Positions 1 to 63,430 of a stretch of DNA of 64,000 bases are shown here, piece by piece (positions within the stretch are counted from its first letter, which is position 1; every line of letters starts with the position of its first letter). The stretch comes from an uncultured Gemmatimonadaceae bacterium (GTDB taxonomy: Bacteria; Gemmatimonadota; Gemmatimonadetes; Gemmatimonadales; Gemmatimonadaceae), in NCBI GenBank assembly GCA_963829055.1, contig CAWHHI010000016.1, positions 448,001-512,000 on the forward strand. Reading direction: 5' to 3'. The notes below the pieces were generated by a model, which saw only the letters and a list, made by a program, of their open reading frames with translations, was not told the DNA's origin and made no database searches. Made by a program: the position numbers and the translations under genes.

Positions 1-2117
1 CGGGTCGGTCGCGCCGGACAACGTCATCGCGCCGTTCGCCTACTCGCGTCCTCAAATCGCCCGACGAGCTCGCGAAGGAACAGAACGACATTGCGCGGTC
101 GGTCGAGCCGATCTTCACGTCTCGTTCCCGCGGCGCTCGACACGTCCCGGGCGCTCGTCGAGCAGTTCGCTTCCGGATTGCGACGCATCAGCGGCAACAC
201 CGACGGCCAACGCGCGGCGGCTGTCCAGGCAGCTCGGGCAACAGCTCGGCGTGCAACTCACGATGTCGGAAGCTGCGGTAGGTCGCCGTGCCCGAGCACG
301 GGCGAAGCGGTGACGGACGCGGTGCGCCGCGCGTACGATCGCTGGCTGGCCGCAGGCGTCGCCTCTAGCGGCGTGCTCGACGCCATCCAGGGCGCGGTGA
401 CGCTGCAAGCGCGACGGGACCGAAAGGTCCGTCAACGCGGACAGCATCGCGACGTTCGCGTCGCTGCTCATGCGCGCGCGGCTCCTGCATCCCGATCCGC
501 GGTCGCCCGACGGCGGACGCCGCGTTCCGAAAGCTGCTCGCCGCGTTCTTCCGGCCGACCGATCGTGTACGACCGCGTGGCCACCGAGCGCGCGCGCCAG
601 GACCTGCGCCGCTCGGTGCCTAACGTCAAGTACACGCTTGCGGCTCGGCGAGAAGATCGTCGGCGCGCACGAGGTCGTGGGACGCGAGGAGCAGCGCGAA
701 GATGCGCGCCCTGCAGGACGAGCTCGCGCGCCGTGGCGACAGCCGCCGCAACGTCAGCCGGATCGTCGGGGCGGTGCTGTTCAACACGCTGGTCCTGACG
801 ATCTTCGGGCTGACGCTGCTTCCTGTTCCGGCCGCAGCTGTACGCGTCCATCCGCGCCGTCCTGCTGTTCGCGATCGTCTTTCTGCATCGTGATCGTCAC
901 GTCGTCGCTGATCGCGCATCTGCCGGCGCGGCTGCATCCCGAGCTCATTCCCGTCGCGTTCGCCGCCGTCATCGCGAGCATGCTGTTCGACCCGCGCATC
1001 GGCATGATCGCGGCGATGGTCCTCGCCGTGCTCATCGGCGGGCAGAGCGAGTTTCGCGGGACGAACGCGCTCTTCCTCAACCTCATCGGCGGCACGGCCG
1101 CGGCGTTCACGATGCGCGATCGTGCGTAATCGGAACCAGACGCAGTGGGCGGTGTTCGCGATCGCGTGCGCGTACCTCGCCGCGGCGCTCGCCATCGGCC
1201 TCACGCTCGACTTGCCGATGACGCGAGATCGCGCGCAGTGCGGGCTGGGGCGCGCTCAACGCGGTCGCGTCGCGTCGCGATCGCGATGCTCCTCCTGCCA
1301 GGTGCGGAGCAGTTCGCGGGCGTCGACACGGACCTCACGCTGCTCGAGTGGTCGGATCTCAACCGTCCGCTGCTGCAGCGGCTGAGTCTCGAGGCGCCGG
1401 GCACGTACGCGCACACGATCGCGATCGCGAACCTCGCCGAGAGCGCGTGCCACGCGATCGGCGCGAACGGATTGCTCGCGCGCGTCGGCGCGCTACTACC
1501 ACGACATCGGCAAGCTCGAAGAAGCCGCAGTACTTCGTGGAGAATCAGGCGAAGGGGCGCAACCCGCACGACAAGCTCAAGCCGAACACGAGCGCCGCGA
1601 TCATTCGGAATCACGTGCGCGAGGGGCTCGAGCTCGCGGAGGAGCACAAACTGCCGCGCGGCGTGCGCGCGTTCATCCGCGAGCATCACGGCACCGGGCC
1701 GATCTCGTACTTCCTCGAGAAAGCGAAGGAGCGGGACGGGGTACCGGCCAACTCCGCGGAGTTCGCGTATCCTGGCCCGTCGCCACAGAGCATCGAGACG
1801 GCGATCGTGATGCTCGCCGACGGCGCCGAAGCTGCCGCACGCGTGCTCAACGACCCGACGCCGCAGAAGATCCGCGAGGTGATCGATCGCATCGTGCGGC
1901 AGCGGCTCGATCAGGGACAGCTTCGCGACGCGCCGCATCACGCTGCGCGCAGCTCGAGCAGGTGAAGGAGCAGTTCACGCGCGTGCTCGCCGGGATGTAT
2001 CACTCGCGCATCGACTACCCGGCGTCGAGCGGCGGCATCACGGCGGAGTTCGGGACGCCGGAGGCTCGCGGCGCCCGAAGCGCGGCCGCCCGAACCCCGC
2101 ACCGGGCAATCCGGTAG
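1..2117 (+). CDS. 7TM-HD family phosphohydrolase (PgpH/YqfF-like), 5' truncated, several frameshifts
   Basis: Fragments across frames: TM segments (IPVAFAAVIASMLFDPRIG), LLEWSDLNRPLLQRLSLEAPGTYAH, YHDIGK, KPQYFVENQ...NPHDKL, IREHHGT, MLAD; stop TAG at 2115-2117. Confidence 0.85.
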
Positions 2118-2153
2118 GGGCCGGCGGGCAAGCCAAGTCGTGACGTCCGCATC

Positions 2154-2629
2154 GTGAGTCTCATCGTCGACGTCACCGCGGACGGCGTTCGCACGCCGCT
2201 CGCGCGCGCGCGCGTCAGCGACCTCGCGCTCGGCGTGCTGCGCGCCGAGCGCGTGCGCGACGCCCTCGTGTCGATCGCGTTCGTCTCGCGCGCGCACATC
2301 GCGCGCTCAACCGCGCGCACCTCGGCCACTCGGGTCCGACCGACGTCATCTCGTTCGCTTCGACGAACCCACCGGGCGCCTCCGCGCGATCCGGTGATCG
2401 TCGGCGACATCTACATCGCGCCGGACGTCGCGCGCGCGAACGCCGCGCGGCTGCGGCGGAAGCGTTAGGCGAGGAGCTCGCGCGGCTCGTCGTGCACGGC
2501 ACGCTGCACGTGCTCGGACACGACCATCCCGACGGCGACGAGCGCACGAGCTCCGCCATGTGGCGCCGGCAGGAGCGGCTGCTCGCGAAGCTCCTCGACG
2601 GCTCGACGCCAGGCAAGCGCGCCAGATGA
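2154..2629 (+). CDS. ybeY: rRNA maturation endoribonuclease YbeY (frameshifted)
   Basis: PTDVISF, GDIYI and [11 protein letters not shown] (HxxLHxxGxDH) motifs; usual position next to HD hydrolase and CorC genes. Confidence 0.85.
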
Positions 2630-3884
2630 CCACGTTCATCGCGGTCATCGTCTCGATCGTCGCGTCGGCGTTCGCCGCGCATCTTCGCCGCGGCGGACGG
2701 TGCGCTGCTCGCCGTCGACCCGGGCGACTCGCGTGTCAGCCAGCACGTCCGCACGCTCGCCGATCGACGCGAGCGCCCGCATCGCGCGCTCGCGCTCGCG
2801 CGCATCCTGTCGCACCTCGTCGCCGGGTGCGCCGTCGCGGCCGCGCTGCGCTTCTCGGACCGGTCGCTCGCCGCATCGCTCGCGATCGCTGTTCCTGTCG
2901 CGCTGGTCGCCGTACTGCTCTCCGAGAGTGTCGCGCGGAGCGTCGGCGACGCCATGGGCGCGCGGGCCCTCGATCGCCTCGCGCCGCTGGTGCGCGCCGT
3001 CGAACTCGTGCTGTCGCCCGTCGTCCTCGTCGGCGCGTGGCTCGACAACGTGCTCCAGGCGCTCATCCCACCGTCGCGCGGTCGAAGAAGACCGCGAAGC
3101 GACGACCGAGCAGTTCCGCCAGGTCGTCGCCGCCGAGGCGGACGTCACCGACGCGGAGGAGACGATTCTGCACGGCGTGTTCTCGCTCGGCGACACGGCG
3201 GTGCACGAGATCATGGTGCCGCGCGTGGACATCGTCGGCATCGACCGCGACGACGCCGTGGTCGCGAGGTGCTCGACCGCGTGCGCAGCTCCGAGCACGC
3301 GCGCTTTCCCGTGTATCGACGACACGCTCGACGACATCACCGGCATTCTGTACGCGAAGGACCTGCTGCCCGTCGTCATCGCCGACGACGAGCCGATGCG
3401 CGGCTGGCACGACGCTCGTGCGGCCGGCCGCGTTCATTCCCGATCTCGCAAGACGCATCGACGTGCAGCTGCGCGACTTCCAGGCGAGCCGCACGCACAT
3501 CGCGATCGTCAGCGACGAGTACGGCGGCACCGCCGGCCTCGTGACGATCGAGGACATTCTCGAGGAGATCGTCGGCGAGATCCACGACGAGTACGACGTC
3601 GAGGAGCCGGCGGTCGAGCAGGAGGACGGGCGGCGCTTCTGGGTCACCGGGCGCGCTGACGATCGACGAGCTGTCCGAGCTGCTCGGCGCAGGACTTTCG
3701 CGCGCGACGACGTGACGACCGTCGGCGGACTCGTCTACGAGCTGTTCGGTCGCGTGCCGCGAGGCCGGCGAGTCGTTGCACGATCGGGGCTTCCGCATCG
3801 TCGTCGAGCGCGTGCGTCGGCGCCGCATCGAGCGCGTGTACTTCGAGCGCGCTGCAGCCGGCGACTGCGGAGCGTCGGTCATGA
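2626..3884 (+). CDS. Hemolysin/CorC family CNNM-CBS-CorC protein, copy 1 (frameshifted)
   Basis: [61 protein letters not shown]. Confidence 0.85.
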
Positions 3885-4894
3885 CGCTCTCAGCGTCCTG
3901 CTCATCGTCTGCGCTCGTCATCGTCGCCTGCCTCACGGCCGGCGGCGATGGCGATGCGCTCGGTGAGCCGCATCTGGCTGCGCCACTGGGTCGAGCAGCA
4001 GCTTGCGCGGGGCGCCGCAGCGCCGCGCTCTACCTCGAGCGGCCGCAGCGCTTGCTGCTCGCCGCCGCGACCGGCATCGCCGTCACCGTGCTCGTCGCCG
4101 GCGCGCTGATCGGCGCGGTCGGCGGCGCGCGCCTGCCGCATCGTCGCTCGGCGACTCGCCGTGTTCGCCGTCGTCGTGCTCGTCATCGGTCAGCTCCTGC
4201 CGCGCGCGATCGCGCGCCGCTGGCCGCCCGCCGTGCTGCCGCTCCTGCTCGCCGGTGCTGCGGGCGGCCGCGATCGTCGCTGGCGCCGTTCGTCGTCGTC
4301 GCGCGCCGCGTGTCGCGCGATCGTTCGCGCGCGAGCGCGCCGAGCGCCGGCGCACGCCGACCGCGACGACCATCCAGGATCTCCTGCGCGAGGGCGAGCT
4401 CGAGGGCGTCGGCGAGCGCGAGGAGATGGCGATCATCAGCGGCGTCGTGCAGTTCGGCGAACAAGATCGTGCGCGAGGTGATGACGCCGCGCGCCGAGAT
4501 CTTCGCCATCGACGAGCGCGATTCGCGGTCCCGAGCTCGCCGCTGCAGATCGCGCAGTCGCGCTACAGCCGCGTGCCGGTCTATCGACGACACGCTCGAC
4601 AACGTCATCGGGATGATCCACGCGTTCGACGTGCTCAAGGACACGCGGCGAGCGACGACGCCAGCGCTCCGGCCCGTCGCCGACGCGCCGGTCGACGGCA
4701 CGCCGTGCAACGAGCTGCTCTTCCGCATGCTGCGCGAGCAGCCAGCACCTCGCGATCGTGCGCGACGACGACCGGCGCAGCTCGTCGGGCTCGTGACGCT
4801 CGAGGATCTGCTCGAGGAGCTCGTCGGCGACATCCGCGACGAGCACGACGAGCCGGCACCACCGAGCCGATCGGTTCCGACGCCCGCAGCGTGA
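3881..4894 (+). CDS. Hemolysin/CBS-domain protein, copy 2 (frameshifted)
   Basis: [51 protein letters not shown]. Confidence 0.8.
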
Positions 4895-4931
4895 CCTGCG
4901 ACCGGCATCCAACGGCACCAGACGCCGACTC

Positions 4932-6027
4932 GTGACGACTCCGCGTCGCCGAAGCAAACTCATCGCCGACTTCGAGGCACGCCGCCCGGCCGCGCTCGCG
5001 CGCGCGATCAGCATCGTCGAGAACCATCGCGCCGGGCTTCGACGCGCTGCTCGGCGCGCTGCACCCGCGACATCGGCCGCGCGCGGCGCATCGGCATCAC
5101 CGGGCCGCCGGGCGCCGGGAAGAGCACGATCACGACCGCAGCTCGCGCGCGGCGTACCGCGACGCGGGGCTGACGGTCGGCATCGTCGCGCGTCGATCCG
5201 ACGTCGCCGTTCACCGGCGGCGCGCTGCTCGGCGATCGCATCCGCATGGAGGAGCGTCGCGCTCGATCCCGGCGTGTACATCCGCTCGCTCGCGACGCGC
5301 GGCTCGCTCGGCGGACTCGTCGTCCGCGACGCGCGAGGTGTGCCGACGTGCTCGATGCGTTCGGCTTCGATCGCATCCTCATCGAGACGGTCGGCGTCGG
5401 GCAGAGCGAGCTCGATGTCGCGCGCACGGCGGACACGACGCTCGTCGTGCTCGTGCCCGAGTCGGGCGATTCGATTCAGACGCTCAAGGCCGGCCTGATG
5501 GAGATCGCCGACATCTTCGTCGTGAACAAGGCGGATCGGCCCGGCGCCGACCGGCTGCGCACCGAGATCGAGCTGATGCTCGGCATGCGCACCGGCGCGA
5601 CGATGCGCAACGTGCCGGCGCATCACGGCGTCGATCTGTCACGCAGATCATGAACCTGGCGCGGCATGGCTGCGCGAGGCCGCGGCGGCGCGACGACCGG
5701 ATCGTGGACGCCGCCCGTGCTGCGCACGGTCGCGGCGAAGGGCGAGGGAATCGCCGAGCTGATCGACCGCGCTCGACCGGCACTTCCGCTATCTTGAGGC
5801 GAGCGGCGCGCTTCGCGCCGGCGCCGCGCAGCGGCTGCGCGAGCGCGTCGTCGACGTGGTCGAGCGACACGACTGCGACAGCCGCCTCTGGACGCGACGC
5901 GGCGACGAACGCCTGGCTCGACGAGCGGCTGCCGGCGACTCGAAGTCGGGCACGGCGACGCCATTCGCGGTCGCCGACGCGCTGCTGGCGCGCAGCGCGG
6001 ACCTTCTGACGCGGACGACGATCATGA
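4932..6027 (+). CDS. meaB: MeaB/ArgK-family GTPase chaperone of B12 mutases (frameshifted)
   Basis: [74 protein letters not shown]. Confidence 0.9.
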
Positions 6028-7747
6028 CGTCGATGCGAGATCTCGACGCAACGCGGACGACGCGACGAGCGCGACGAGACCGACGCGCCGAGCTCGAACG
6101 ACTGCGCGCCGAGGTCGCCGCGTGGCGGCAGCGCCTACGAGAAGGGCGAGAAGCGCGAGATCGCGCTTCACCAACTCGCGAGCGCGAGGTCGAGCCGCTG
6201 TACACGGCGCTCGACGTCGCCGGGACGACACGGCGCGCCTCGGCGCTGCCCGGCGCGTACCCGTACACGCGCGGCATCCATCCCACGGGCTATCGCGGCA
6301 AGCTGTGGACGATGCGGCAGTTCGCCGGCTTCGGCAGCGCGACGCGACACGAACGAGCGCTTCAAGTTCCTGCTCGCGCACGGGCAGACGGGACTCTCGA
6401 CCGCGTTCGATTTCCCGACGCTGATGGGCTACGACTCCGACCATCCGCGCTCGGAGGGCGAGGTCGGCAAGACCGGCGTCGCGATCTCGAGCCTCGCCGA
6501 CATGGAGGTGCTGTTCGACGGCATCCCGCTCGACCAGGTCTCGACGTCGATGACGATCAACGGGCCGGCGATCATCCTCTGGGCGTTCTACATCGCCGCC
6601 GCGGAGAAGCAGGGCGTGTCGAGCGACGAAGCTGCGCGGCACGATCCAGAACGACATCCTGAAGGAGTACATGGCGCAGCACGCGTGGTGCTTCCCGATC
6701 GAGCCCGCGCTGCGCCTCATCGTCGACTGCTTCGAGTGGGGCGCGACGCACGCGCCGCAGTGGAATACGGTTTCGATCTCCGGCTACCACATCCGCGAGG
6801 CCGGGTCGACCGCCGCGCAGGAGCTCGCGTTCACGCTCGCCGACGGCTTCACGTACGTCGAGCGCGGCATCGCGCGCGGGCTCGACGTCGACGACTTCGC
6901 GCCGCGCCTGTCGTTCTTCTGGGACATCCACAACGATTTCTTCGAGGAGATCGCCAAGCTGCGCGCCGCACGCCGCATCTGGGCGCGTCACATGCGCGAG
7001 CGCTACGGCGCGAAGAACCCGCGCTCGCTGGCTGATGCGCTTCCACTCGCAGACGGCCGGCGTGACGCTCACCGCGCAGCAGCCGATGAACAACGTCGTG
7101 CGCGTCGCCTATCAGGCGCTGGCCGCGGTGCTCGGCGGCACGCAGTCGCTGCACACCAACTCGATGGACGAGACGCTCGCGCTGCCGACGGAGGACGCGG
7201 TGCAGGTCGCGCTGCGCACGCAGCAGGTGCTCGCGTACGAGACGGGCGTGCCGAACGTGATCGATCCGCTCGGCGGCTCGTACTACGTCGAGGCGCTCAC
7301 CGACCAGCTCGAGCGCGAGGCCGAGGCGCTGTTCGCCGAGATCGAGAGATCGGCGGCGTGGTGCGCGGGCTCGAGGCAGGGCTGGTTCCAGCGCAAGATC
7401 GCCGAGTCCGCGGCGCGCCAGCAGTGGGAGATCGAGCAGCATCGCCGCGTGATCGTCGGCGTGAACGAGTTCGTCACCGACGAGCCAGAGCTCGACGATT
7501 CCGACTGCTCAAGATCGGCGAGGACGTCGACCGCGAGCAGCGCGAGCGGCTGGCGAAGATGCGCGCCGAGCGCGACCAGGCGCTCGTGCGACGCAGCGGC
7601 TCGACGAGCTGCGCAGCGGCCGCGCGCGGCACGCGAGAACGTGTTTCCGCACATCCTCGACTGCGCGCGCGCGTACTGCACGCTGTACGAGATCCGCGCG
7701 CGCTGGAAGACGTGTTCGGCGCGTACCGCGAGCCGGTGTTCTTCTGA
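6024..7747 (+). CDS. B12-dependent acyl-CoA mutase large subunit (methylmalonyl-CoA mutase family, isobutyryl-CoA mutase-like residues), frameshifted
   Basis: [78 protein letters not shown]. Confidence 0.92.
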
Positions 7748-7749
7748 GC

Positions 7750-8548
7750 CCCGCGCGACGCAAGACGGCACGCGGAGTGGTGGGCGTCGTACTTCGACGC
7801 CCACTATCTGCTCGAGTACGAGCCGATCTTCGACCTCGCGCGCGATCGCCGCGAGGTCGCGCGCCTGATCGAGCTGCTCGCGCTCCCGTCCGGCGCGCGC
7901 ATGCTCGACGTGCCCTGCGGCCAGGGACGCCACGCGCACCTGCTCGCCGAGGCGGGCTTCGACGTCGACGGGCTCGACTACTCGACGCACCTGCTCGCGC
8001 GCGCGCGCGAGCGCGGCACCGGGCCGACGCTGCGCTACACCCGCGGCGACATGCGCGCGCTGCCGGCGCGCTGGACCGGACGCTTCGACGCCGTGCGTCA
8101 ACCTGTTCACGTCGTTCGGCTTCTTCACCGATCCCGCGCGACGACGCGCGCGTCGATCGCCGAGTTCGCGCGCGTGCTCAAGCCGGGCGGCATGCTCGTC
8201 TGGCACGGCGGCAGCCGCGACGGCGTGATGGCGCGCTTCCTCGCCCGCGACTGGTGGAAGTCGCGACGACGGCACGATGATCGGCCACGAGCGGTCGCTT
8301 CGATCCGCTGTCCGGCGTGCTCACGATCGACACCGACGTGGGAAGGTCCGTCGCGGACGCGGGCAGCGCGCAGCACCGCATCCGCCTCTACACGGCGACG
8401 CGATCTGGCCGAGCTCTGCCTCGACGCCGGCCTCGTCGTCGAGGAGGCGTACGACGGCTGGCACGACCGCCCGCTGCGCCGGCGGTCGGGCGAGATGCTG
8501 CTCGTCGCGCGCAAGCGCGAGTTGCCGCGCCGTCGCCGCGGCGGCTAG
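7750..8548 (+). CDS. Class I SAM-dependent methyltransferase (start uncertain, frameshifted)
   Basis: [10 protein letters not shown] motif I, GLDYS, GDMRALP, FTSFG, RVLKPGG, HRIRLYT. Confidence 0.8.
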
Positions 8549-8622
8549 CTTTCCGCCCTGACGAGCGTCGCCGTCGCCGATCGTCGCTGCGGCCGGCCGC
8601 CGACGTCCCTCTTCCGGATTCT

Positions 8623-9034
8623 ATGCGTCCCATTCGTGTTCTGGTCGCCAAGCCCGGCCTCGACGGTCACGACCGCGGCGCCAAGGTCGTCGCCGCCGCG
8701 CTGCGCGACGCCGGCATGGAGGTCATCTACACCGGCCTCCACCAGACGCCCGAGATGATCGCCACCGCCGCCGTCCAGGAGGACGTCGACGTCGTCGGCC
8801 TGTCGATCCTGAGCGGCGCGCACATGACGCTCTTTCCGCGCGTGCTCGAGCTGCTGCGCGCCGAGGGTCGCGACGACATCCTCATCACCGGCGGCGGCAT
8901 CATCCCGAGGGAGGACATGGACGCGCTGCAGGCGCATGGGCACGGGCAAGCTGTTCGGCCCCGGCACGCCGACGTCCGATCTCGTCGACTACATCAAGGC
9001 GTGGTTCGCCGAGCGGTCGACGCAGGAAGCGTGA
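8623..9034 (+). CDS. Cobalamin-binding small subunit of acyl-CoA mutase
   Basis: [22 protein letters not shown] (DxHxxG), [20 protein letters not shown] after a frameshift. Confidence 0.92.
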
Positions 9035-9040
9035 CCGCCC

Positions 9041-10667
9041 GTGACACAGCCGGCTCCGCGAGCTGAGCGCCGAGCTCCGCGCGCTCGAGGCGCGCCTGCG
9101 CCAGGGCGGCGGCGCCGACAAGATCGCGCAGCAGCACACGCAGGGAAAGCTGACGGCGCGCGAGCGCATCGCGCGGCTCTGCGACGCCGGCGCGCGCTTC
9201 ATCGAGATCGGCCTGCTCGTCGCGTACGACCAGTACGACGGCCAGGCGCCCGCCGCCGGCGTCGTCACCGGCATCGGCATCGTGCACGGCCGCGCCGGTC
9301 GTCGTCGTCGCGAACGACGCGACGGTGAAGGCCGGCTCGTGGTGGCCGGAGACGATCAGGAAGATCCTGCGCGCGCAGGAGATCGCGATGCGCTGCCGCA
9401 TCCCGATCATCTATCTCGTCGACTCGGCCGGCGTGAACCTGCCGTATCAGGGCGGCGTGTTCCCCGGGCAGTACGGCGCGAGCCGCATCTTCTACTACAA
9501 CTCGATCATGCGGCGGTACCTGCGCGTGCCGCAGCTCGCCGCCGTGATGGGACCGTGCATCGCCGGCGGCGCGTATCTGCCCGGCGCTCTCCGACCTCAT
9601 CGTGATGGTGAAGGGCACGTCGTTCATGGGACTCGGCGGACCGAATCTCGTGAAGGGCGCCACCGGCCAGACGATCGACGGCGAGACGCTCGGCGGCGCC
9701 GTGACGCACACGGAGATCAGCGGCGTCGCGCACTACGCGGTGGACGACGACGACGCGTGCCTCGCGCAAGCTGCGCGATCTCGTGCGCGCAGCTGCCGCG
9801 CAGCCGCAGCGTCGCGGCGCCGCGTCCGCAGTCCGCGCGAGTCCGCGGCGCCGCAGACGCGCTCTACGATCTGCTGCCGGCCGACCACCGCATGTCGTAC
9901 GACATGCACGCAGATCCTGCGCGCCATCGTCGACGACGGCAAGCTCGACGAGTTCCAGGAGCATCTCGCGCGCGAGATGATCTGCGGCGACGCGCGCATC
10001 GACGGCATCGCCGTCGGCGTCATCGCGAACCAGCGCGGACTGATCAAGGGACGCGCCGGGCGAGAAGCCGCGCTTCGGCGGCATCGTCTACGCCGAGAGC
10101 GCGGAGAAGGTCGCGTTCTTCATCGACCGCTGCGACCGGCAGGGCATTCCGCTGCTGTTCGTGCAGGACGTCTCCGGCTTCATGGTCGGCCCCGAGGCCG
10201 AGCACGAAGGAATCATTCGCGCCGGCGCGCGCTTCGTCGAGGCGATGGCGACGGCGCGCGTGCCGAAGATCGTGCTCACGGTGAACCACGCGTCGGGCGC
10301 CGGCTACTACGCGATGGCGGGCCAGGGCTTCGATCCCGATTTCATCTTCTCGCTGGCCGACGGGACGCATGGCCGTGATGGAAGGCGAGGCCGCGGTCCA
10401 GGCGGTGCACGGCCCGGCGCTCGAGCGGCGCGAAGCAGAGCAAGCAGCCGCTCGACGCCGAGACGTCAGCGCGTCCGTCGACGAGATGCGCGCCGACTAC
10501 GAGCACCAGCTCGACGCGCGCTACGCGGCGGCGCGCGGCTTCGTCGACGCGATCGTCTATCCCGAGGAGACGCGCGACGTGCTCGCGCTCGCGCTCCGCG
10601 CCGCGCTGCACAATCCCGGGCCCGCACCTCGGCCCCTTCGTGCTTCCACCGCACTCCCGACGCATGA
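9041..10667 (+). CDS. Acyl-CoA carboxylase carboxyltransferase (beta) subunit, MCC/PCC-like (frameshifted)
   Basis: [71 protein letters not shown]. Confidence 0.9.
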
Positions 10668-10677
10668 GTCAGCATCC

Positions 10678-12054
10678 GTGACAGAATCGCATCGTTCGCG
10701 TCGCCGCGGGGCAGGGCTTCTGGGGCGACTGGCTCGACGCGCCGCGCCGGCAGGTCGAAGGCGGGCCGGTCGACTACCTGATGCTCGACTATCTCGCCGA
10801 AGTCACGATGTCCATTCTGCAGAAGCAGAAGGAGCGCGACCCGAGCATGGGCTACGCGCGCGACTTCGTCGGCGCGATGGAGAGCGTGCTGCCGGCCGTC
10901 GTCGAGCGCGGCGTGCGCGTCATCGCCAACGCCGGCGGCGTGAACCCGCGTCGCGTGCGCCGAGGCGGTGCGCGACGTCGCGACGAAGCGCGGGCGCGGC
11001 GGGCAAGGTGCGGATCGGCGTCGTCACCGGCGACGACCTGCTGCCGCGCCTCGACGAGCTGATCGCCGCCGGCCACCCGCTCGCGAACATGGAGACCGGC
11101 GAGCCGCTCGTCCACCGTGCGCGATCGCGTGCTGTCGGCCAACGCGTACATCGGCTCGACGCCGATCGTCGAGGCGCTCGCGCAGCGGCGCGAACGTCGT
11201 CATCACCGGTCGCTCGACCGACACGGCGCTCACGATGGCGCCGCTGCGCCACGAGTTCGGCTGGGGCGCCGACGACTGGGACCGGCTCGCCGCCGGCATC
11301 ATCGCCGGCCACATCATCGAGTGCGGCGCGCAGTGCTCCGGCGGCAACTGCCTCTACGACTGGCGCAACATCCCCGATCTCGCGAACGTCGGCTATCCGA
11401 TCGTCGAGGCGCGCGCCGACGGCACGTTCGTCGTCACGAAGCATCCGGGCACCGGCGGGCGCATCTCCGTGCCGTCGGTCACCGAGCAGCTCGTGTACGA
11501 GATGGGCGATCCGCACGCGTACATCACGCCGGACGTCGTCGCCGACTTCACGACGATCCAGCTCGCGGCCGACGGCGACGAACCGCGTGCGCGTCTTCGG
11601 CATCAAGGGCCGCCCGGCGACGGACAAGCTGAAGGTGTCGATCGCCTATCGCGCCGGCTTCAAGGCGGTCGGCACGCTCGTCTACTCGTGGCCCGACGCG
11701 CTCGAGAAGGCGCAGCTCGCCGACCGCGTGCTGCGCGAGCGGCTCGACAACCTCGGCCTTCGCTTCGACCAGATCCTCACCGAGTTCGTCGGCGTGTCCG
11801 CGACGCACGGCCCGCTCGCCGGCCACGCCGGCCGACGCGCCGGAAGTGCAGCTTCGCATCGGCGTGCGCTCGGCCGGATCGCAAGCGGCGGTCGAGCGCT
11901 TCACGCGCGAGATCGCGCCGCTCGTGCTCAACGGACCGCCGAGCGTCACGGGCTTCGCCGGCGGCCGCCCGAAGGTCGAGGAGATCGTCGCCTACTGGCC
12001 CGCGCTCGTCGACAAGACGCGTCGTCCAGACGCAGCGTCGAGGTGCTCGCATGA
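10678..12054 (+). CDS. Acyclic terpene utilization AtuA / DUF1446 family protein (frameshifted)
   Basis: [72 protein letters not shown]. Confidence 0.85.
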
Positions 12055-12406
12055 AGGTCCGCCTCGTGGACATCGCGCACGCGCGCTCGGGCGACAAGGG
12101 CGACACCGCGAACGTCGGCGTCATCGCGCTCGAGCCGCGAGTGGTATCGCGTTGCTCGTCGCAGTACGCTCACGCGCGAGCGCGTCGCCGCAGCACTTCC
12201 GCGGCGTCATCACCGGCGACGTCGAGCGCTTCGAGCTGCCGAACCTCAACGCGCTCAACTTCCTGCTGCACGGCGCGCTCGACGGCGGCGGAACGCTGTC
12301 GCTCAAGACGGACGCGCAGGGCAAGGTGTTCTCGACCGCGATGCTTCGCATGGTGCTCGACGTCCCCGACGCCGAAGCAAGCTCGCTCGGCCTCCCATCG
12401 GCGTGA
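12051..12406 (+). CDS. AtuA C-terminal-like small protein
   Basis: [19 protein letters not shown]...[31 protein letters not shown]. Confidence 0.8.
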
Positions 12407-12437
12407 CGGCGAGCCACACCGTCAGGAGGATGGTGAC

Positions 12438-12602
12438 ATGGATCGCTTGGCGGTGCTCAAGATCGCGTTCGCGCTCGCCGGCGTCGGGATCTTTGGCTAC
12501 GGCGTGCAGAGTCGAGGACGCGGTGGTGCGATGGGTGCGGCATTGCACTGCGTCGTCGCCGCGTTCCTGCTGCGCTTCGTGAAGAAGCGTCCGGTCGAAT
12601 AG
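12438..12602 (+). CDS. Small hypothetical membrane protein (~54 aa, 2 TM)
   Basis: AGGAGG RBS upstream; hydrophobic [22 protein letters not shown]...AFLLRFVKK. Confidence 0.55.
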
Positions 12603-12648
12603 TCGAGCCGAGCCACGGCTCGGGCGAGGCGCGCTATCTTTCGAGGCG

Positions 12649-15190
12649 ATGCGTCCCGCCCGCCGTACCCCGAGCTGCTCGCTCCCGCCGGCTCACTCGA
12701 CGCCGTCCGCGCCGCTGTCGCGAACGGTGCGGACGCCGTGTACCTCGGCGCCGAGCGGTTCAACGCGCGCGACGAGGGCGCGCAGCTCACGCTCGACGAG
12801 CTCGAGCGCGCGTGCCGCTCGCGCACGCGCGGGCGTTCGCATCTACCTCACGCTCAACATCCTCATCAAGCCCGACGAGCTCGCCGACGCGCTCGATGTT
12901 CCTCGGCGACGCGATCGATCGCGGCATCGACGCGGCCATCGTGCAGGACATCGGGCTCGTGCGGCTCATCCAGCGCGGTCTATCCCGGGCTTCGAGATCC
13001 ACGGCTCGACGCAGATGACGGTGCACGACGCCAGCGGCGCGCGCGGTCATGCGCGAGCTCGGCGTCGACCGCGTCGTGCTCGCGCGCGAGAACACGCTCG
13101 ACGACATCCGGGCGATCCGCGCCGCCGTGCCCGACCTCGGACTCGAGACGTTCGTGCACGGCGCGCTCTGCATCTCGTACTCCGGCCAGTGCTACATGTC
13201 GGGGATGATCTCCGAGCGCAGCGCGAATCGCGGCTCGTGCGCGCAGTCGTGCCGCAAGGACTACGTACTCACCGACGCCGCGACCGGGCAGGAGCTCGAT
13301 CGCGGCTTCCTCATCTCGGCGAAGGACCTCGGCGCGCTCACGATCACCTCGCGGAGATCGCGGAGGCCGGCATCGGCTGCCTCAAGGTCGAAGGGCGGAA
13401 GAAGAAGCCCGAGTACGTCGCGACGGTCACGCATGGCTATCGCGAGTTTCTCGACCGCCTGGAGCAGGGCGATCCGTGGCGCCGCCGTCGTCCGAGGACG
13501 TGCAGCCGCTCGTCCAGATCTACAGCCGCGGCTTCACGCGGCGGCATGTACGGCGGTCGAGCGGGCCGCGACTACATCACGCGCACGCAGCCCGACAATC
13601 ACGGCGTCGTGATCGGCGAAGTCGTTGGACGTGAGGGCGGCGAGCTCCTCGTCGACGTCACGACGCCCATCGACGTCGGCGATGGCCTCGGCTTCGAGGC
13701 TCCCGAGGGGACGAAGGCGCCCACGTTAGGCTTCGCGGTGTCCGCCGTGCGGACCGTGCGTGAGCACGCGGCGGCGAACGCGTCAGGCGATCGCGACGCA
13801 GAACCACCGTGCCCGCCGGCTGGACCGTGCTGCGGACGTCGCACGCCGCGCTGCTCGAGCGCGCGCGCGCGAGCTTCGCCGAGCTGCCGGCGCCGGTGCG
13901 CACGCGGCGCGCGCGGCTGGACGTGCGGCTGTTCGGCGCCGCCGGCGCACCGCTCAAGGTCGTCGTCGAGTGCGGACGGCGAACAGGTCACCGTGCGCGG
14001 CGAGGTGCCGCTGTCGCCCGCGCGCGCCCACGCTCTCGATGTATCGAGGCTTCGCGAGCAGTTCGGCCGCCTCGGCGAGACGCCGTTCGCGCTCGGCGAG
14101 CTCGACATCGCAGGACTGCGCCAGCGGGCTGTTTCTGCCGATGAGCGAGCTGAATCACCTGCGGCAACAGATCGTGGACGAGCTGTTGCTGCGTCGCGAC
14201 TGGGCTGCGTCCACGCGTGCTGCAGATCGCGCAGCAACGATCGCCGCCGCGATAGCCAACGTGCCGGTGGCTGGCCCGCCCGCGATGCATCCGTCGTTCC
14301 CGGCATCACGGTAACCGCGCCGAGCCACACGGAGTTCGTGCTCAGCGCGGAGGTGTATCGCGTCGAAGACGCCCGCGCCGCGGCGGATGCCGGCGCCACC
14401 GAAGTCACGTTCGATCCGTTTCTGCGTCACCCCGCTCCTCCCGCTGCCCGCGTTAGGGCGCTGGCAGAGGAGCTCTCGGCCCGCGGCGTCTCGCTTCGCT
14501 TGCGCACGCCGACGATCGTTCGGCCCGAGGACCGGCGCTCGCTCGAGAAGTGGCTCGCGCTCGAGATGCCGATTCTCTCGGGCCATCTTGGGTCTCGTCG
14601 CCGAGTTGTCGCGCGCCGGTCGCGACGTGATCGCGGACTACGCGGTGAACTGCTTCAACCAGCACACCGCGGCGGAGGTATTCCGGCTCGGTGCTCGGCG
14701 CATCGTCATGTCGATCGAGCTCACGACGGGCGAGCTCGCCGCCGTCGTTGCGCCGTGGAGCGGCCGTGGGTTCGACGTCCTCGTGTACGGCCGGCCCGAG
14801 GGCATGACGATCGAGCACTGCGTGTTGTCCGCGGCGTTCGACCGCGAGCCGACGACGTGCCGCGACCTGTGCGTGCAGAAGCACCCGATCGTCGAGCTCA
14901 CGGATCCGGCGGGCTACACGTTCGCCGTCGCGACCGATTCGGCGTGTCGCAATCGGCTGCTGCACTCGAGACCCATCGAAGCGTCCGAGTATCTGCCGCG
15001 GCTCTGGCAGTCGGGCATTCGCGGATTCCGCACCGTGTTCAACGTGCCCGGCGATCCGATCCGCGATGTGGTCGCGGGCTATCGCTCTGCGCTCGACGCG
15101 TTGGCGTCAGGATCGACGGTACAGGCGTCCGCGGTTCGCGAGCTCGTCGGTGCGAGGTTCACGCGCGGCCACTTCGCTCGCGCGGTTTGA
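12649..15190 (+). CDS. U32 family protein, long RlhA-like form (Fe-S RNA hydroxylase family), frameshifted
   Basis: PELLAPAG, GADAVYLG, HGSTQMT, RVVLARE, FVHGALCISYSGQC, NRGSCAQSCR, LKVEGR; second degenerate U32 domain; ends FTRGHF. Confidence 0.85.
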
Positions 15191-46696: not shown

Positions 46697-48510
<1,814 letters not shown>

Positions 48511-54649: not shown

Positions 54650-55597
<948 letters not shown>

Positions 55598-55618: not shown

Positions 55619-56335
55619 ATGACTGCACCCTCCGCTACGGCGGTCAACGAGAAATCAGCGCGCGTCCAACCGACGCGTCCCGGCACGCTTGCCCGGTTCT
55701 GGAGCTCATCGATCGGGAAGAAGGCGGTCATGGCGGTGACCGGTTTGATCATGATCGCCTTCCTGATCGCGCACGTGTTAGGCAACCTGCAGGTGTTCGC
55801 GGGGCCGCTCAAGATCAACGAGTACTCCGCGGCGCTGCATCGCCTCGGTCCGTTGCTGTGGCTCGCTCGCGGCGGGCTGATCGTCGCCCTGGTGCTGCAC
55901 GTGATCGCCGCCTATCAGCTGACGCAGCGGACGCGGACGGCACGCCCGATCGGCTATGCCGACGCCGATCCACAGGTCTCGACATTCGCCGCACGGACGA
56001 TCCGGTGGGGCGGGGTGCTGCTGCTCGCGTTCATCGTACTGCACCTGCTGCACTTGACGTTCGGCACGATTCACCCGGCGTTCGACCGCAAGGACGTGTA
56101 CGGCAACATGATCGTGGCGTTCCAGGTGTGGTGGGTCGCGCTGCTCTATCTCCTGGCGATGATCGGGGTGGGGCTCCACCTCTACCACGGGACCTGGAGC
56201 AGCATCCGCACGCTCGGCCTAACGAGAGCGTCGGCCAACCCGCTGAAGCGGCGCGCGACAGCCGTGCTCGCGTGGGCGATCTATCTCGGCTTCTCCATTA
56301 TCCCGATTGCGGTGCTCGCCGGCATCGTCAGGTAG
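55619..56335 (+). CDS. sdhC: Succinate dehydrogenase cytochrome b subunit
   Basis: [24 protein letters not shown]. Confidence 0.92.
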
Positions 56336-56373: not shown

Positions 56374-58287
56374 ATGGAACTGCGTTCCCGAATTCCTTCA
56401 GGCCCGATCGAGGGCAAGTGGGACAACCACCGCTTCGAGATGAAGCTGGTGAACCCCGCGAACAAGCGAAAATTCACGGTGATCGTGGTCGGCACCGGTC
56501 TCGCTGGCGGCTCAGCCGCGGCGACGCTGAGTGAGCTCGGCTACAACGTACTGTGTTTCTCCTTCCATGACTCGCCACGTCGCGCGCACAGCATCGCGGC
56601 GCAGGGTGGTATCAACGCCGCCAAGAACTACCAGAACGACGGCGACAGCATCTATCGGTTGTTCTACGATACGGTGAAGGGCGGGGACTTCCGCGCCCGG
56701 GAAGCCAACGTCTACAGACTCGCGCAGATATCCGTCAACATCATAGACCAGTGCGTTGCGCAGGGCGTTCCGTTCGCTCGCGAGTACGCCGGCCTTCTGG
56801 CGAATCGCTCGTTCGGTGGTGCACAGGTCTCGCGCACGTTCTACGCGCGCGGGCAGACCGGGCAGCAGTTGTTGTTAGGCGCCTACCAGGCGCTCGAGAA
56901 GGAGGTCGCGCGCGGCGGCGTGAAGATGTTCACGCATACGGAGATGCTCGACGTCGTGCTCGTGGACGGCAAGGCCCGCGGCATCGTGACCCGCGACCTG
57001 CGCACGGGCGCGATCGAGGCGTATGCCGCCGATGCCGTTGTGCTGGCGACCGGTGGCTACGGGAATGCGTTCTACCTGTCCACGAACGCGAAGAACTCGA
57101 ACGCGACGGCCATCTGGCGCGCGCACAAGCGCGGTGCGGCGTTCGCGAACCCGTGCTTCACGCAGATCCACCCGACCTGCATTCCGGTGGCGGGCGACTA
57201 CCAGTCCAAGCTCACGCTCATGAGCGAGTCGCTGCGGAATGACGGCCGCGTGTGGGTGCCGAAGAAAGCTGGCGACAAGCGAGCACCGGGAGACATCCCA
57301 GACGCAGAGCGCGACTACTATCTCGAGCGAAAGTATCCGAGCTACGGAAACCTGAGCCCACGCGACATCGCATCGCGTGCGGCAAAGGAGGTGTGCGACG
57401 AAGGGCGTGGCGTCGGAGAGACCGGTCGCGGCGTATACCTCGACTTCGCCGATGCCATTCAGCGCGTGGGTGAGGACCGCATCCGCGAACGGTACGGCAA
57501 CCTGTTCGAGATGTACGAGCGGATCACGGACGAGAACCCGTACAAGGTCCCGATGCGGATCTACCCGGCCGTGCATTACACCATGGGCGGACTCTGGGTG
57601 GACTACAACCTCATGAGCACGCTCCCCGGTCTGCACGTGCTGGGCGAGGCGAACTTCTCCGACCACGGCGCGAATCGACTCGGTGCGAGTGCGCTCATGC
57701 AGGGACTCGCGGATGGCTACTTCATCATTCCGTACACCATCGGCGACTACCTCGCCAGCGCGAAGCTCGAGAAGGTGTCGGCGGATCAGCCGGAGTTCCA
57801 GGCAGCGAAGCGCGGCATCGCCGACAACACGAAGCAGCTGTTAGGCATCGACGGCAAGCGCACGGTCGACTCGTTCCACCGCGAGCTCGGCCTCGTTCTG
57901 TGGGAGGACTGTGGGATGGCGCGGAACGCCGCTGGGCTCAAGCGCGCGTTAGGCCGTATTCCAGAGATCCGCGAGGAGTTCTGGAAGAACGTGAACGTGC
58001 CCGGCAGCGATGCCGAATTGAATCAGGCGCTGGAGAAGGCCGGCCGCGTGGCGGATTTCCTCGAGTTCGCCGAGTTGATGTGTACGGACGCGTTGCACCG
58101 CGAGGAATCGTGCGGCGGACACTTTCGAGAAGAGTATCAGACGCCGGACGGCGAAGCACAGCGCGATGACTCGCGCTTTGCCTACGCGGCGGCGTGGGAA
58201 TTTCGCGGCGTCGGCAACTCCCCGGTGCTGTGCAAGGAACCGCTGACGTTCGAGTACGTGGCGCTTACTCAGCGAAGCTACAAGTGA
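56374..58287 (+). CDS. sdhA: Succinate dehydrogenase/fumarate reductase flavoprotein
   Basis: [36 protein letters not shown]. Confidence 0.96.
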
Positions 58288-58363
58288 CGCACCTATCGGC
58301 CATCAGCCAAATGGCCATGAGCTACTGCCTCGGTACGCCGATAGCTTCTCTTTCTACCTAACG

Positions 58364-59140
58364 ATGCGTTTCACTTTACGGGTTTGGCGTCAGCAGGGTC
58401 CGAACACTCCGGGGAAGATGGTGCAGTACGACGCACCAGATGTGAGCCCGGACATGTCGTTCCTCGAGATGCTCGACGTCGTCAACGAGCGATTGACCGA
58501 GAGCGGCGAGGAGCCGATCGCGTTCGCGCATGACTGCCGCGAAGGCATCTGCGGGTCGTGCTCGCTCATGATCAACGGCATTGCGCACGGGCCCGTTCGC
58601 GGCGCGGCGACGTGTCAGGTACACATGCGCAGCTTCGACGACGGCCAGACGATCCAGATCGAGCCGTGGCGAGCGCGGGCGTTTCCGGTCATCAAGGATC
58701 TCGTCGTCGATCGTGAGGCGCTCGATCGCATCGTTCAGGCGGGCGGGTTCATCTCGGTGCCCACCGGCAGCGCTCCGGATGCGAACGCAATTCCGATCCC
58801 GAAGCAGGACGTCGACGACGCGATGGACGCGGCCGCGTGCATCGGCTGTGGCGCGTGCGTCGCGGCGTGTCCTAACGCGTCGGCGTCGCTGTACACGGCC
58901 GCGAAGGTGAGTCACCTCGGCCTCTTGCCACAGGGGCAGCCGGAGCGGTATCGCCGAGTGCTTCGGATGGTGGATCAGATGGACCTCGAAGGGTTCGGCG
59001 GCTGCACACTGTTCGGCGAGTGCCAGGAAGCGTGCCCGAAGCTCATCAGCATCGACACGATCGCACGCATGAACCGCGATTACTTCAAGGCCGCGACATT
59101 CGGCGCGCGCGAGCCGACCGCGGTGGCCGGTAGCGGGTGA
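58364..59140 (+). CDS. sdhB: Succinate dehydrogenase Fe-S subunit
   Basis: [33 protein letters not shown]. Confidence 0.96.
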
Positions 59141-59529: not shown

Positions 59530-59578
59530 AGCTCCCCGGCGACGGTGCCTAACGAGCTCTACCGGATGTCCCGACGGG

Positions 59579-61416: not shown

Positions 61417-62114
61417 GCGACTCGTTCGAACTTCAATACCCGGGTAGCGCGCTCGGAAACGCACCGGCGCCAGTCAGCCCACGCAACGTTCCGAATCGCG
61501 GCGGCGAGGTCAATCCGTCGGCGGCCGCGCTCCGCGAACAATTCGGCGACGCCATCTCGCGCGTCGAAGTCGTGTGGGGTGACACGAACGTCTACGTGCG
61601 CCCCGACCGAGCGCTCGACGTCATTCGATGGCTGCATGACGATCCGACGCAGCGGTACGACTATCTATCGGACGTCACCGCCGTCGAATATCGCGACGCG
61701 GACTTCCCGATCGAAGTCATCTGGCATCTTCGATCGCTCCCGTTCCGTCGCTTCCTGCGCGTGAAGGCGCAGCTGGAGAAGAACGCGCCGCTCGAGGTGA
61801 CGAGCGTGTGGTCGATCTACAAGTGCGCGGATTGGCTCGAGCGAGAGTGCTTCGACATGTTCGGCATCAAGTTCGTCGGGCACCCCGACCTTCGCCGGAT
61901 TCTCATGTGGGAGCAGTACCGCGAGGGCTTCCCGCTGCGAAAGGATTTTCCGCTCCGTGGTCGGTTCAGCCGCGCGGAACAGCTGCGTCAGGCGCTCGCG
62001 GCAAATCCCGAAGCACGGTACTCGATGGAGGAGCTTTCCATCGCTGACGCGTTCGAGGATCTGCCGACCGAAATGCGCTCGCGCCTCCGCGGCGGCGAGC
62101 GCACAGGAGAATAG
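61413..62114 (+). CDS. nuoC: NADH-quinone oxidoreductase subunit C
   Basis: [28 protein letters not shown]. Confidence 0.95.
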
Positions 62115-62116
62115 CA

Positions 62117-63430
62117 GTGGCTACGCAGAAGCGAACGGTTGACGTCGCGCTCTCCACGACGGGCGTCGACGCCCAGGGGCGGCCGCAGCGCGTGCCGCTC
62201 GTCACGGCCGACGACGGATCGCCCGTCGCGGTCGAGGCGCCGCCAATGATGGAGCCCGATCTCGCCGGTGAGCACATGCTCATCAACATCGGGCCACAGC
62301 ATCCCGCGACGCACGGCGTGTTGCGCCTCGTGCTGGAGCTCGACGGCGAGACGGTCGTGCGCTGTATCCCGCACGTCGGCTATCTGCACTGCGGCTTCGA
62401 GAAGCTCGGCGAGTATCGCCAGTACAATCAGATCCTGCCGCTGACCGATCGCGAAGATTACCTGAACGCGATGGGCAACAACGTCGGGATGGTGCTCGGC
62501 GCCGAGCGTCTGTTCGGCATCGAACCCACCGAGCGCTGCAAGGTGCTGCGGGTGATCGCGTGCGAGCTGTCGCGCATCGCGTCGCACCTGGTCTGGCTCG
62601 GCACGACGTGCATCGACATCGGCGCGTTCACGCCGTTCCTGTGGGCGTTCCAGCAGCGCGAGTACATCTACAACCTGATCGAGTCGTGGGTCGGCGCGCG
62701 CCTAACGCCGACGATCACGCGCGTCGGTGGTCTCGCCGCGGACATCCCGGACGGGTGGCTGCAGAATCTCCGCACGTTCATCGCGAAGTTCCCGGCGACG
62801 GTCGATGAGATCGACAAGATGCTGACGAAGAACGGCATCTGGGTCGGGCGCACGATCGGACTCGGCGTCATGACGGCGGACGAGGCGATCAACTGGGGGC
62901 TCTCGGGTCCGATGCTCCGAGCATCGGGCGTCGCGTACGACGTGCGGAAGGACTTCCCGTACTACGACTACGAGACCTACGACTTCGACGTTCCCATCGG
63001 GACGAACGGCGACGTGTACGATCGGTACCTCGTTCGCATGGAGGAAATGCGCCAGTCGGTTCGCATTCTCCAGCAGGCGGCCGATCGGTTGCCCGACGGT
63101 CCGATCAACGTCGACGACCCGCGCGTGATCCTGCCGAACAAGTCCAAGGCAACGAGCGAGATGGAGTCGATGATTCATCACTTCAAGCTCGTCATGGAAG
63201 GCCCGCGCCCGCCGCTTGGCGAGGCGTACGTCGCCATGGAGAGCCCGAAAGGCGAGAAGGGCTACTATATGGTGTCCGACGGCACGTCGAAGCCCGTGCG
63301 CTGGCGCATTCGTCCGCCGTCGTTCGTGAACCTGTCCGCGATTCCGAAGATGGTCGAAGGGCATCTGCTCTCCGACGTCATCGCGATCAACGCGAGCATC
63401 GACATCGTGATGGGAGAGATCGACCGCTGA
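62117..63430 (+). CDS. nuoD: NADH-quinone oxidoreductase subunit D
   Basis: NIGPQHPATHGVLRL, ESPKGE, GEIDR. Confidence 0.97.
   Translation: MATQKRTVDVALSTTGVDAQGRPQRVPLVTADDGSPVAVEAPPMMEPDLAGEHMLINIGPQHPATHGVLRLVLELDGETVVRCIPHVGYLHCGFEKLGEYRQYNQILPLTDREDYLNAMGNNVGMVLGAERLFGIEPTERCKVLRVIACELSRIASHLVWLGTTCIDIGAFTPFLWAFQQREYIYNLIESWVGARLTPTITRVGGLAADIPDGWLQNLRTFIAKFPATVDEIDKMLTKNGIWVGRTIGLGVMTADEAINWGLSGPMLRASGVAYDVRKDFPYYDYETYDFDVPIGTNGDVYDRYLVRMEEMRQSVRILQQAADRLPDGPINVDDPRVILPNKSKATSEMESMIHHFKLVMEGPRPPLGEAYVAMESPKGEKGYYMVSDGTSKPVRWRIRPPSFVNLSAIPKMVEGHLLSDVIAINASIDIVMGEIDR

Follow-up and report, generated by a model that had tools for sequence, protein, structure and literature searches.

An eight-base word written through the genes of some soil Gemmatimonadaceae, and the tentative case for an uptake-like signal

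Why does one short word, CCTAACG or its reverse complement CGTTAGG, recur on both strands and within genes along a stretch of DNA from an uncultured soil Gemmatimonadaceae bacterium? The stretch, hereafter the window (64,000 nucleotides), is C16:448001-512000 of the source genome G000 (7.78 Mb in 20 contigs, 66.6% GC), where G denotes a genome, L a compared locus and C a contig. An initial annotation of the window had listed 39 copies of CCTAACR, and every one of them was present at its position. The null for the window, 100 dinucleotide-preserving shuffles, held 2.83 copies on average (maximum 7). CCTAACG itself occurs 34 times (18 on +, 16 on -; shuffle mean 2.48, maximum 6), and five copies are A variants (CCTAACA/TGTTAGG, at 27521, 28761, 55776, 56873 and 57839). 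The roughly 7 exact copies that the annotation had expected from base composition were an overestimate, so the true enrichment exceeds the one it claimed. Its observation that nearly every CCTAA/TTAGG pentamer extends to the motif held for 39 of 41, the exceptions being, as it had said, those at 51053 and 63986.

The same over-representation extends to the whole genome, where CCTAACG has 6,391 copies. A G precedes the heptamer in 78% of these, and flank consensus is limited to positions -1 and +8; we therefore take the unit to be the octamer GCCTAACG/CGTTAGGC, which is complete at 24 of the 39 window sites. G000 contains 5,004 octamers (2,457 forward and 2,547 reverse), whereas Markov models of orders 1-3 predict 131, 102 and 257, or 120, 58 and 19 when the word is masked from the background. 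This comparison, which the annotation had proposed as a check, bears out its suspicion, and in k-mer counts the word ranks first at each k from 5 to 9. Its density is one per 1.2-1.6 kb. Variants at the ends of the octamer are also over-represented (ACCTAACG 30-fold, GCCTAACA 26-fold and CCCTAACG 16-fold over expectation). Interior one-base variants stand at 0.4-1.0 times expectation, except for GCCTGACG (2.2 times) and GCATAACG (583 copies, 11 times), the latter being the sole interior variant that is strongly enriched. This tolerance at the ends and intolerance in the interior fits a sequence-specific reader. Other enriched 8-9-mers, such as TTCCCGATT, are due to low-complexity short repeats of GGGAATC and CCATCAG type, which lie at 60134-60170, 60276-60312 (inverted) and 48525-48558 and recur many times in each of the five same-genus genomes searched. 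The sites in the window, with one long stretch that lacks the word, are as follows.

619..625 (+): word, full octamer GCCTAACG
2463..2469 (-): word, full octamer; final copy before the word-free stretch
2470..13723 (no strand): word-free stretch of 11.3 kb with no CCTAAC/GTTAGG; 70-72% GC, where the rest of the window has 63-67%
13724..13730 (-): word, full octamer, U32 peptidase open reading frame (ORF), TTA frame
14451..14457 (-): word CCCTAACG, U32 peptidase ORF, GTT AGG
16309..16315 (+): word, full octamer, recQ-like gene, CCT AAC
18364..18370 (-): word, full octamer, acyl-CoA dehydrogenase, TCG TTA GGC
23209..23215 (+): word, full octamer, antisense in amidohydrolase gene, TTA frame
23915..23921 (-): word, full octamer, sense in amidohydrolase gene, CCT AAC
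24184..24190 (-): word, full octamer, second amidohydrolase gene
25459..25465 (-): word, full octamer
27491..27497 (+): word CCCTAACG, anti-sigma zf-HC2 gene
27521..27527 (+): variant GCCTAACA
28601..28607 (+): word TCCTAACG, intergenic
28761..28767 (+): variant ACCTAACA, intergenic
28843..28849 (-): word TCCTAACG, intergenic
28853..28859 (-): word ACCTAACG, intergenic, 10 bp from the copy at 28843
30961..30967 (-): word, full octamer, polysaccharide deacetylase gene, TTA frame
31950..31956 (-): word ACCTAACG, LPG-synthase-like gene, TTA frame
32534..32540 (+): word ACCTAACG, 2-hydroxyacid dehydrogenase gene, CTA frame
35481..35487 (-): word, full octamer; also in same-genus locus L001
36458..36464 (-): word, full octamer; also in L001
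39307..39313 (+): word, full octamer, coaBC, reads Pro-Asn
40450..40456 (-): word, full octamer
42711..42717 (-): word, full octamer, radA, TCG TTA GGC; kept in L001, L002, L014-L018 and L020
43429..43435 (+): word, full octamer, radA, CTA ACG; common to L001 and L002 only
46111..46117 (+): word, full octamer, aroE, CTA ACG; private to G000; intact in contig X1, record 2
49391..49397 (+): word ACCTAACG, its TAA the stop of the pgk ORF; private to G000
49430..49436 (+): word, full octamer, gap between pgk and tpiA; in all five same-genus loci
50127..50133 (+): word, full octamer, tpiA, GGC CTA ACG; private to G000
55001..55007 (+): word, full octamer, mdh, CCT AAC; relatives have CCGAACG or CCCAACG
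55776..55782 (-): variant GCCTAACA
56218..56224 (+): word, full octamer; common to four of five same-genus loci
56873..56879 (-): variant GCCTAACA, sdhA
57839..57845 (-): variant GCCTAACA, sdhA
57947..57953 (-): word, full octamer, sdhA, TTA frame; private to G000
58357..58363 (+): word ACCTAACG, gap between sdhA and sdhB
58871..58877 (+): word TCCTAACG, sdhB, CCT AAC
59548..59554 (+): word, full octamer, intergenic, adjoining dcd
62701..62707 (+): word, full octamer, nuoD, CTA frame; common to L237 only

We asked how the word sits within genes, using crude gene calls made for this analysis that cover 74% of G000. Called genes contain 2,205 heptamers in sense and 2,289 in antisense orientation, and uncalled DNA another 1,897; since 70% of copies thus lie in called genes, coding and non-coding densities are about equal. 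Genes read the word in each of the four stop-free frames (xCG TTA GGC 1,572 times, CCT AAC G 1,179, xxC CTA ACG 776 and C GTT AGG C 519). When synonymous codons were shuffled within genes (30 replicates), 338 heptamers remained against 4,068 observed, and 153 octamers against 3,225, in keeping with the annotation's claim of a force acting on the DNA rather than on the protein. The annotation had also proposed testing whether TTA and CTA codons are concentrated in the word. Of in-frame TTA codons 1,577 of 2,810 (56%) lie inside it; for CTA the count inside is 780 of 3,881 and for CCT 1,191 of 8,695. The individual codon readings it gave for the acyl-CoA dehydrogenase, radA, tpiA, recQ, mdh and sdhB are those in the list above. 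For the U32 peptidase its GTT AGG applies to the copy at 14451, in the long ORF, and not to that at 13724, where the frame reads TTA. By the same crude calls, 265 of 810 TAA and 211 of 1,672 TAG stops fall inside the word, as at the end of pgk (49391), and this may in part reflect frameshift errors.

Copies of the word are spaced more evenly than chance, with 408 gaps below 200 bp where 977 were expected and 3,453 gaps of 400-1,500 bp where 2,739 were expected, and adjacent copies share an orientation in 3,293 of 6,371 cases. Inverted pairs at 50-150 bp are in no excess in G000 (44 against 43 expected), so the copies are not hairpins, terminators or integron attC sites. A dispersed repeat of the REP (repetitive extragenic palindromic) or MITE (miniature inverted-repeat transposable element) type is ruled out by the lack of an extended flank consensus and by the 70% of copies within called genes. 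The distribution relative to origin and terminus, a further check that the annotation had proposed, was assessed in 50 kb bins on seven contigs and revealed no replication polarity: on C16, the forward and reverse copies number 159 and 201 to the left of a turn at about 550 kb, and 248 and 246 to its right. Near this turn (C16, close to 550000, 38 kb past the window's end) both the GC skew and the direction of genes reverse, and it is probably a replication terminus, because genes point towards it from both sides.

Orthologous columns show that copies were made by point substitution and not by insertion. At tpiA (50127) G000 has CTA where most compared loci have CTC before ACG, and at aroE (46111) it has CTA where many have CTC or CTG; the first change is synonymous, as is the second where the alignment is unambiguous. 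At coaBC (39307), 30 of 32 compared loci have Asp or Glu (GAC/GAT/GAG/GAA) after Pro, while L016 and L017 do not align, so that the gain altered an amino acid (Pro-Asp/Glu, CCN GAN, to Pro-Asn, CCT AAC). The sdhA site at 57947 corresponds to CGCTGGG in L239 and L240, and L236-L238 differ there both from the word and from one another. The radA copy at 42711 is common to eight loci of two clades. Changes that create the word include C to A, G to A and C to T, at several of its positions. Templated writing of whole words is not needed to account for this, as the observed precursors differ from the word by a single change or by two. A 20 kb block (window 44001-64000) was compared with five same-genus genomes of 79-81% identity. 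Within it G000 has 11 sites and the others 4-7 each; five sites are private to G000, one is present in all six genomes and three occur in relatives only.

The nearest loci come from Gemmatimonadaceae metagenome-assembled genomes (MAGs), and all six same-genus genomes carry 2,500-5,100 octamers. Both strands are used in the relatives' stretches L081-L086, L090 and L091. As the annotation had supposed, the signal is chromosome-wide and lineage-specific, being hyper-abundant only in some genera of the family. Outside it, 119 genomes from 11 families of the phylum lie at baseline, with only G279 above its control (726 against 293). The tallies include the unpublished genomes G013, G048, G094, G210 and G237, which are all word-poor and on which no conclusion depends.

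Word-free DNA within G000 is also informative. Gaps of at least 9 kb number nine, where 1.9 were expected, and the longest three sit at the ends of contigs:

C6:6854-55038: word-free block at the start of C6
C6:591809-623330: word-free block at the end of C6
C11:7377-44055: word-free block on C11

The blocks at the start of C6 and on C11 carry second copies of aroC, fmt, trpG, trpBA, pepA, ftsK and folD that are 46-65% identical to the native ones. Judging by these divergent housekeeping copies, the two blocks appear to come from another organism, most likely through chimeric joins, or else through mis-binning. In the block at the end of C6 the gene checked was greA, which is present only once in G000. 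The word-free stretch in the window (2470..13723) may be a recent acquisition or a join; its genes are fragmentary (methylmalonyl-CoA mutase, carboxyl transferase, AtuA), with only weak paralogues elsewhere in G000.

We scanned viral contigs with a two-copy pattern and examined 80 loci, counting heptamers over whole records against a reversed-word control. Most of these loci were chance matches or integron arrays; L155, L138/L139, L131 and L144, although filed as viral, are integron-like cassette arrays (paired CCTAAC...GTTAGG) over the stretch read. Three unrelated tailed-phage records were 30-140-fold enriched, with hosts not established and only G170 shown to be temperate:

G168, 44 kb, 98% complete: 34 heptamers against 7 in the control; 29 octamers against 0.8 expected
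G169, 17 kb, partial: 39 heptamers against 3 in the control; 29 octamers against 0.2 expected
G170, 49 kb, provirus: 21 heptamers against 3 in the control; 18 octamers against 0.3 expected

In G169, copies lie within the portal (E 3e-131), TerL and TerS genes, in both orientations. G170 carries an integrase. Genes of G168 include a RecT-like recombinase, a replication initiator and an MT-A70 DNA methyltransferase, the last directly after the RecT-like gene (L229:3478-4095), with a second SAM methyltransferase at 7346-8185. Among viral contigs, the portal of L177 matched only its own record, and its nearest cultured phage was 35.6% identical. A host search for G170 returned TerL matches of only 31-44% identity, in 10 of 151 family genomes, and G000 had no Phage_capsid or TerL_ATPase match indicative of a prophage. 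According to a passage in PMC6776037, temperate Pasteurellaceae phages accumulate the uptake signal sequence (USS) of their hosts to host level, whereas large, likely lytic ones do not.

The word also has a counterpart in integrons. GCCTAACG equals, letter for letter, the R' core of attC sites found in related genomes, at all 24 hits in L087 and all 8 in L089; these sites take the form GCCTAACA-AGCGCCTGAAGCTG...CAGCTTAGGCGC-nnn-CGTTAGGC. L087 and L088 (G021:C95:1-26000) and L089 (G019:C3:1-10000) are long cassette arrays with attC sites of about 90 bases. Word-poor relatives have few hits, in one-stranded arrays spaced at 500-650 bp. GCCTAAC/GTTAGGC fits the attC consensus boxes, given in part of PMC12901181 as RYYYAAC for R'' and GTTRRRY for R', and in the local arrays a C precedes GTTAGGC as well. 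This identity, the eighth base of the word and its enrichment in phages all go beyond the initial annotation. A literature search with the word sequence found no earlier description among the papers listed, as the annotation had supposed: none reported its genome-wide abundance, and apart from one irrelevant paper they concerned nematode telomeres and integrons.

What could write such a word? To account for the data, a reader must recognise the whole word in either orientation, and word-bearing DNA must gain a strong advantage in transmission. We tentatively favour the reading that the word is an uptake-sequence-like self word spread by molecular drive, because a DNA uptake sequence behaves likewise in nearly every measured respect; of the options that the annotation had offered, an uptake-like signal fits best. 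A DNA-handling machine would read the word on double-stranded DNA in either orientation, word-bearing DNA would be transmitted better, and the word would spread by molecular drive. The likeliest machine would be the natural-transformation apparatus, in which case the word would be a signal of the same kind as USS or the DNA uptake sequence (DUS) in some Gemmatimonadaceae. Word-bearing fragments would be preferentially taken up and would recombine into the chromosome, and point mutations completing the word would be over-transmitted, whatever codon or amino acid resulted. Hyper-abundance, indifference to orientation, even spacing, origin by point substitution and continuing lineage-specific gain are shown here, whereas it is an inference that uptake is the reading step, that some protein of that apparatus does the reading, and that the word is kept by drive and not by selection on the organism.

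Known uptake sequences differ in length and receptor: the USS of Pasteurellaceae has a 9-base core, and the DUS of Neisseriaceae has 10-12 bases and is read by the ComP receptor. USS copies are reportedly evenly spaced (Karlin and colleagues), and Maughan and colleagues are said to have put forward the drive model. The word resembles these sequences in its roughly one copy per kb, equal use of strands, even spacing, position within genes at a cost in codons and amino acids and position-specific tolerance of variants, and in the presence of uptake genes. It may also share their rarity in foreign DNA and their build-up in temperate phages, although the word-free blocks could be assembly chimeras and only G170 among the phages is shown to be temperate. 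It differs in having only 8 bases, no flank consensus and no inverted-pair terminators, in being patchy and weakly conserved in position, and in equalling the attC core. USS density saturates at about 750 per Mb according to an excerpt of PMC6776037, and the density of the word is in that range. G000 encodes ComEC, a ComEA-like HHH_3 protein, DprA, a secretin and five prepilin-type proteins, a set of uptake genes that looks complete, and the window holds ComFC-like and RadA genes. The ComEA-like gene is at C12:494302, and those for the prepilin-type proteins are at C3:517126, C12:402256, C12:402768, C16:947604 and C11:105399. To our knowledge, no transformation specificity is known in the phylum.

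Several observations weigh against an uptake signal. The word is patchy among and within genera: of 151 family genomes, 37 have at least 800 copies (maximum 6,360 in 5.1 Mb) and 90 fewer than 60, leaving 24 with intermediate counts, and within single genera 3,896 and 4,141 copies contrast with 66 (g52) and 4,469 with 895 (g43). The differences are sharpest for G062 and G152 against G115 (all g52), for G053 against G107, and for G032 against both G095 and G140. DUS and USS, by contrast, fill whole families, and a trait shared by a whole family with dialects is not what 37 word-rich genomes of 151 display. ComEC (141 of 151 genomes) and HHH_3 (146 of 151) occur mostly in word-poor genomes and, being nearly universal, are uninformative as discriminators. 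Positional conservation in the 20 kb block (15 of 47 alignable site-genome pairs) compares with 21-26% for all heptamers; with this near-background level and the private gains, the word seems to be gained lineage by lineage with little positional memory. The phages add to the difficulty. G169 has 1.9 octamers per kb, against about 1.3 in the densest host seen, and G168 has its 34 copies although no integrase was found in 151 ORF scans (35 PHROGs, 116 Pfam), so that drive at the prophage stage does not easily explain either. Finally, exact identity to the attC R' core is not predicted by plain uptake.

Two other candidate readers were rejected. An extra translocase of FtsK/TraB type does not track the word; the FtsK gamma domain occurs once per genome in G014, G062, G152, G115 and G007, and although G000 has a second one, that copy is within foreign DNA. 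A primase site, with CTA/TTA on opposite strands at Okazaki-fragment spacing, was set aside since these trinucleotides are not limiting, and we know of no primase that reads 8 bases.

Among the alternatives, a protective self word following the logic of Chi is possible, though we consider it rather unlikely. A host helicase-nuclease or defence system would degrade DNA until it met the word, chromosomes and phages alike would be selected for word density, and incoming word-bearing DNA would survive long enough to recombine. The three enriched phages are what this predicts, above all the very dense G169 and the nearly complete G168 without a detected integrase, as is the lack of the word in other organisms' DNA joined into the MAG. 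Chi, too, is a self-marking octamer that is over-represented in its host and strongly so in some phages, RecBCD degrades Chi-less DNA, and some lambdoid phages have extremely high Chi counts, as described in part of PMC3784561. The same source states that recombinase-encoding phages select against Chi motifs, and the word-rich G168 has a RecT-like recombinase. The word is non-polar with respect to replication, RecC was found in 0 of 31 relatives, and AddAB-like pairs, present in 13 of the 31, do not correlate with it: AddB-like proteins occur in 8 of 151 family genomes, six of them word-poor, and AddAB-like proteins were not found in the word-rich G001, G002, G005 and G014. Chi is polar relative to replication and needs RecBCD or AddAB. 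Chi proper and the FtsK-orienting polar sequences (KOPS) are therefore ruled out, given no polarity, no RecC and uncorrelated AddAB. An AddB-like and AddA-like pair does exist in some genomes of the genus (G000 C15:9075-16010, frameshifted, and L235 in G004:C25).

A second alternative, which we judge unlikely, is a site comparable to HIP1 (highly iterated palindrome 1), bound by a chromosome-structuring, replication or repair factor, possibly linked to methylation, and kept at its density by ordinary selection. Even spacing suggests a required density, the word is apparently found on every replicon in these cells, phages included, and the phenomenon looks identical to HIP1, a cyanobacterial octamer (GCGATCGC) that, according to PMC5861425, is lineage-restricted, 15-300-fold over-represented and located within genes in non-preferred codons, with no gene-level role. 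However, HIP1 is palindromic and its sites are conserved (PMC5861425), whereas GCCTAACG is asymmetric and appears to turn over fast, with conservation of its sites in the 20 kb block barely above background among congeners. Selection per site should be weak when spread over about 5,000 sites, yet interior variants stand at or below expectation. The 100-fold range of density within one genus is also hard to square with a core chromosomal function.

The attC identity admits a further reading, to which we attach a small probability: a reader tuned to the 8-base string shared by integron cassettes, with uptake or another DNA-selecting system harvesting cassettes. Cassette DNA would arrive single-stranded, ready for the integrase, and as a side effect the same string would be driven into the reader's chromosome and phages. 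Unrelated lineages would then converge on the word, because the attC core is common to the integrons of many bacteria.

A mutational or repair drive, in which very-short-patch-type repair or biased gene conversion turns near-words into the word in whatever DNA replicates in the cell, seems improbable to us. In its favour are the rapid, lineage-specific gains, the enrichment in phages and some depletion of interior one-off variants (0.4-1.0 times expectation). But Vsr was not found in any of the four word-rich genomes tested (G000, G014, G062 and G152), and gains involved several positions and change types, which a single-mismatch enzyme would not produce; the methylation or repair drive that the annotation had proposed is weakened by both. 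Pure mutation does not predict the deficit of close pairs either.

Still less probable are copies that serve as binding or secondary recombination sites (attG-like R boxes) for the integron integrase or a domesticated relative. The letters match the attC R' core of L087 and L089 and the published consensus, and an integron integrase scored over the cut-off in 89 of 151 family genomes. These genomes are word-rich and word-poor alike, and the word-rich G002, G004, G061, G091, G114 and G137 had nothing above Xer level in a search for IntI (best E ~1e-23 to 1e-28), a phyletic pattern that rules out IntI as the reader. attC sites are imperfect palindromes of 60-140 bases in one-stranded arrays beside intI; the copies in G000 share their letters but are solitary, lie in both orientations in ordinary genes and are independent of intI. 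Inverted pairs are not over-represented at attC distances in G000, and thousands of insertion sites within essential genes would be a liability.

Lastly, we see practically no chance that the word is a sequencing or polishing artefact of a long-read assembly: although G000 looks long-read derived and does carry 1-base insertion errors and frameshifted genes, this reading is refuted by loci from short-read MAGs of relatives (contigs named k141- or NODE-), the presence the annotation had asked about, by contigs from four independent studies and by the six same-genus genomes with thousands of octamers each. Among the short-read loci, the 21 kb of L001, whose DnaB is 97% identical to that of G000, contain 7 copies; L015 carries 10 and L041-L049 carry 10-20, while most others have none. 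The stretch is present in 20 runs from 15 studies. Contigs about 99% alike, from the four independent studies, cover the sites at 43429, 46111, 55001, 57947 and 58357, and word sites are untouched by the 40 listed differences (of 676). These contigs are each one base short at one or other of 11 places, in six clusters:

48510-48513, 48765-48771, 49334-49335, 52143-52146, 53233 and 60146: one-base omissions relative to G000

We therefore attribute these places to 1-base insertion errors in the G000 assembly, which account for the split pgk and for the many other partial Pfam matches in the window (including tpiA and methylmalonyl-CoA mutase). A further one-base omission, at 52358, occurred in one run only.

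Few lineages are known to carry a self word throughout the genome, the examples being USS, DUS, Chi and HIP1; each of these gave rise to a field of research or, with HIP1, to a puzzle now decades old. The word described here is an extreme case, with thousands of codons rewritten in abundant uncultured soil bacteria. Close relatives differ in whether they abound in it, so that comparative genomics should be able to find its reader. If it is an uptake signal, it would represent the first sequence-specific transformation system outside the Proteobacteria, and gene flow in soil Gemmatimonadaceae would be channelled by it. There are links between transformation and integrase induction, and if the connection with integrons is true, the word would bear on how cassettes move between cells. 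Word density is in addition a sharp marker, which exposes foreign or chimeric DNA in MAGs of the family and helps to assign phages to their hosts.

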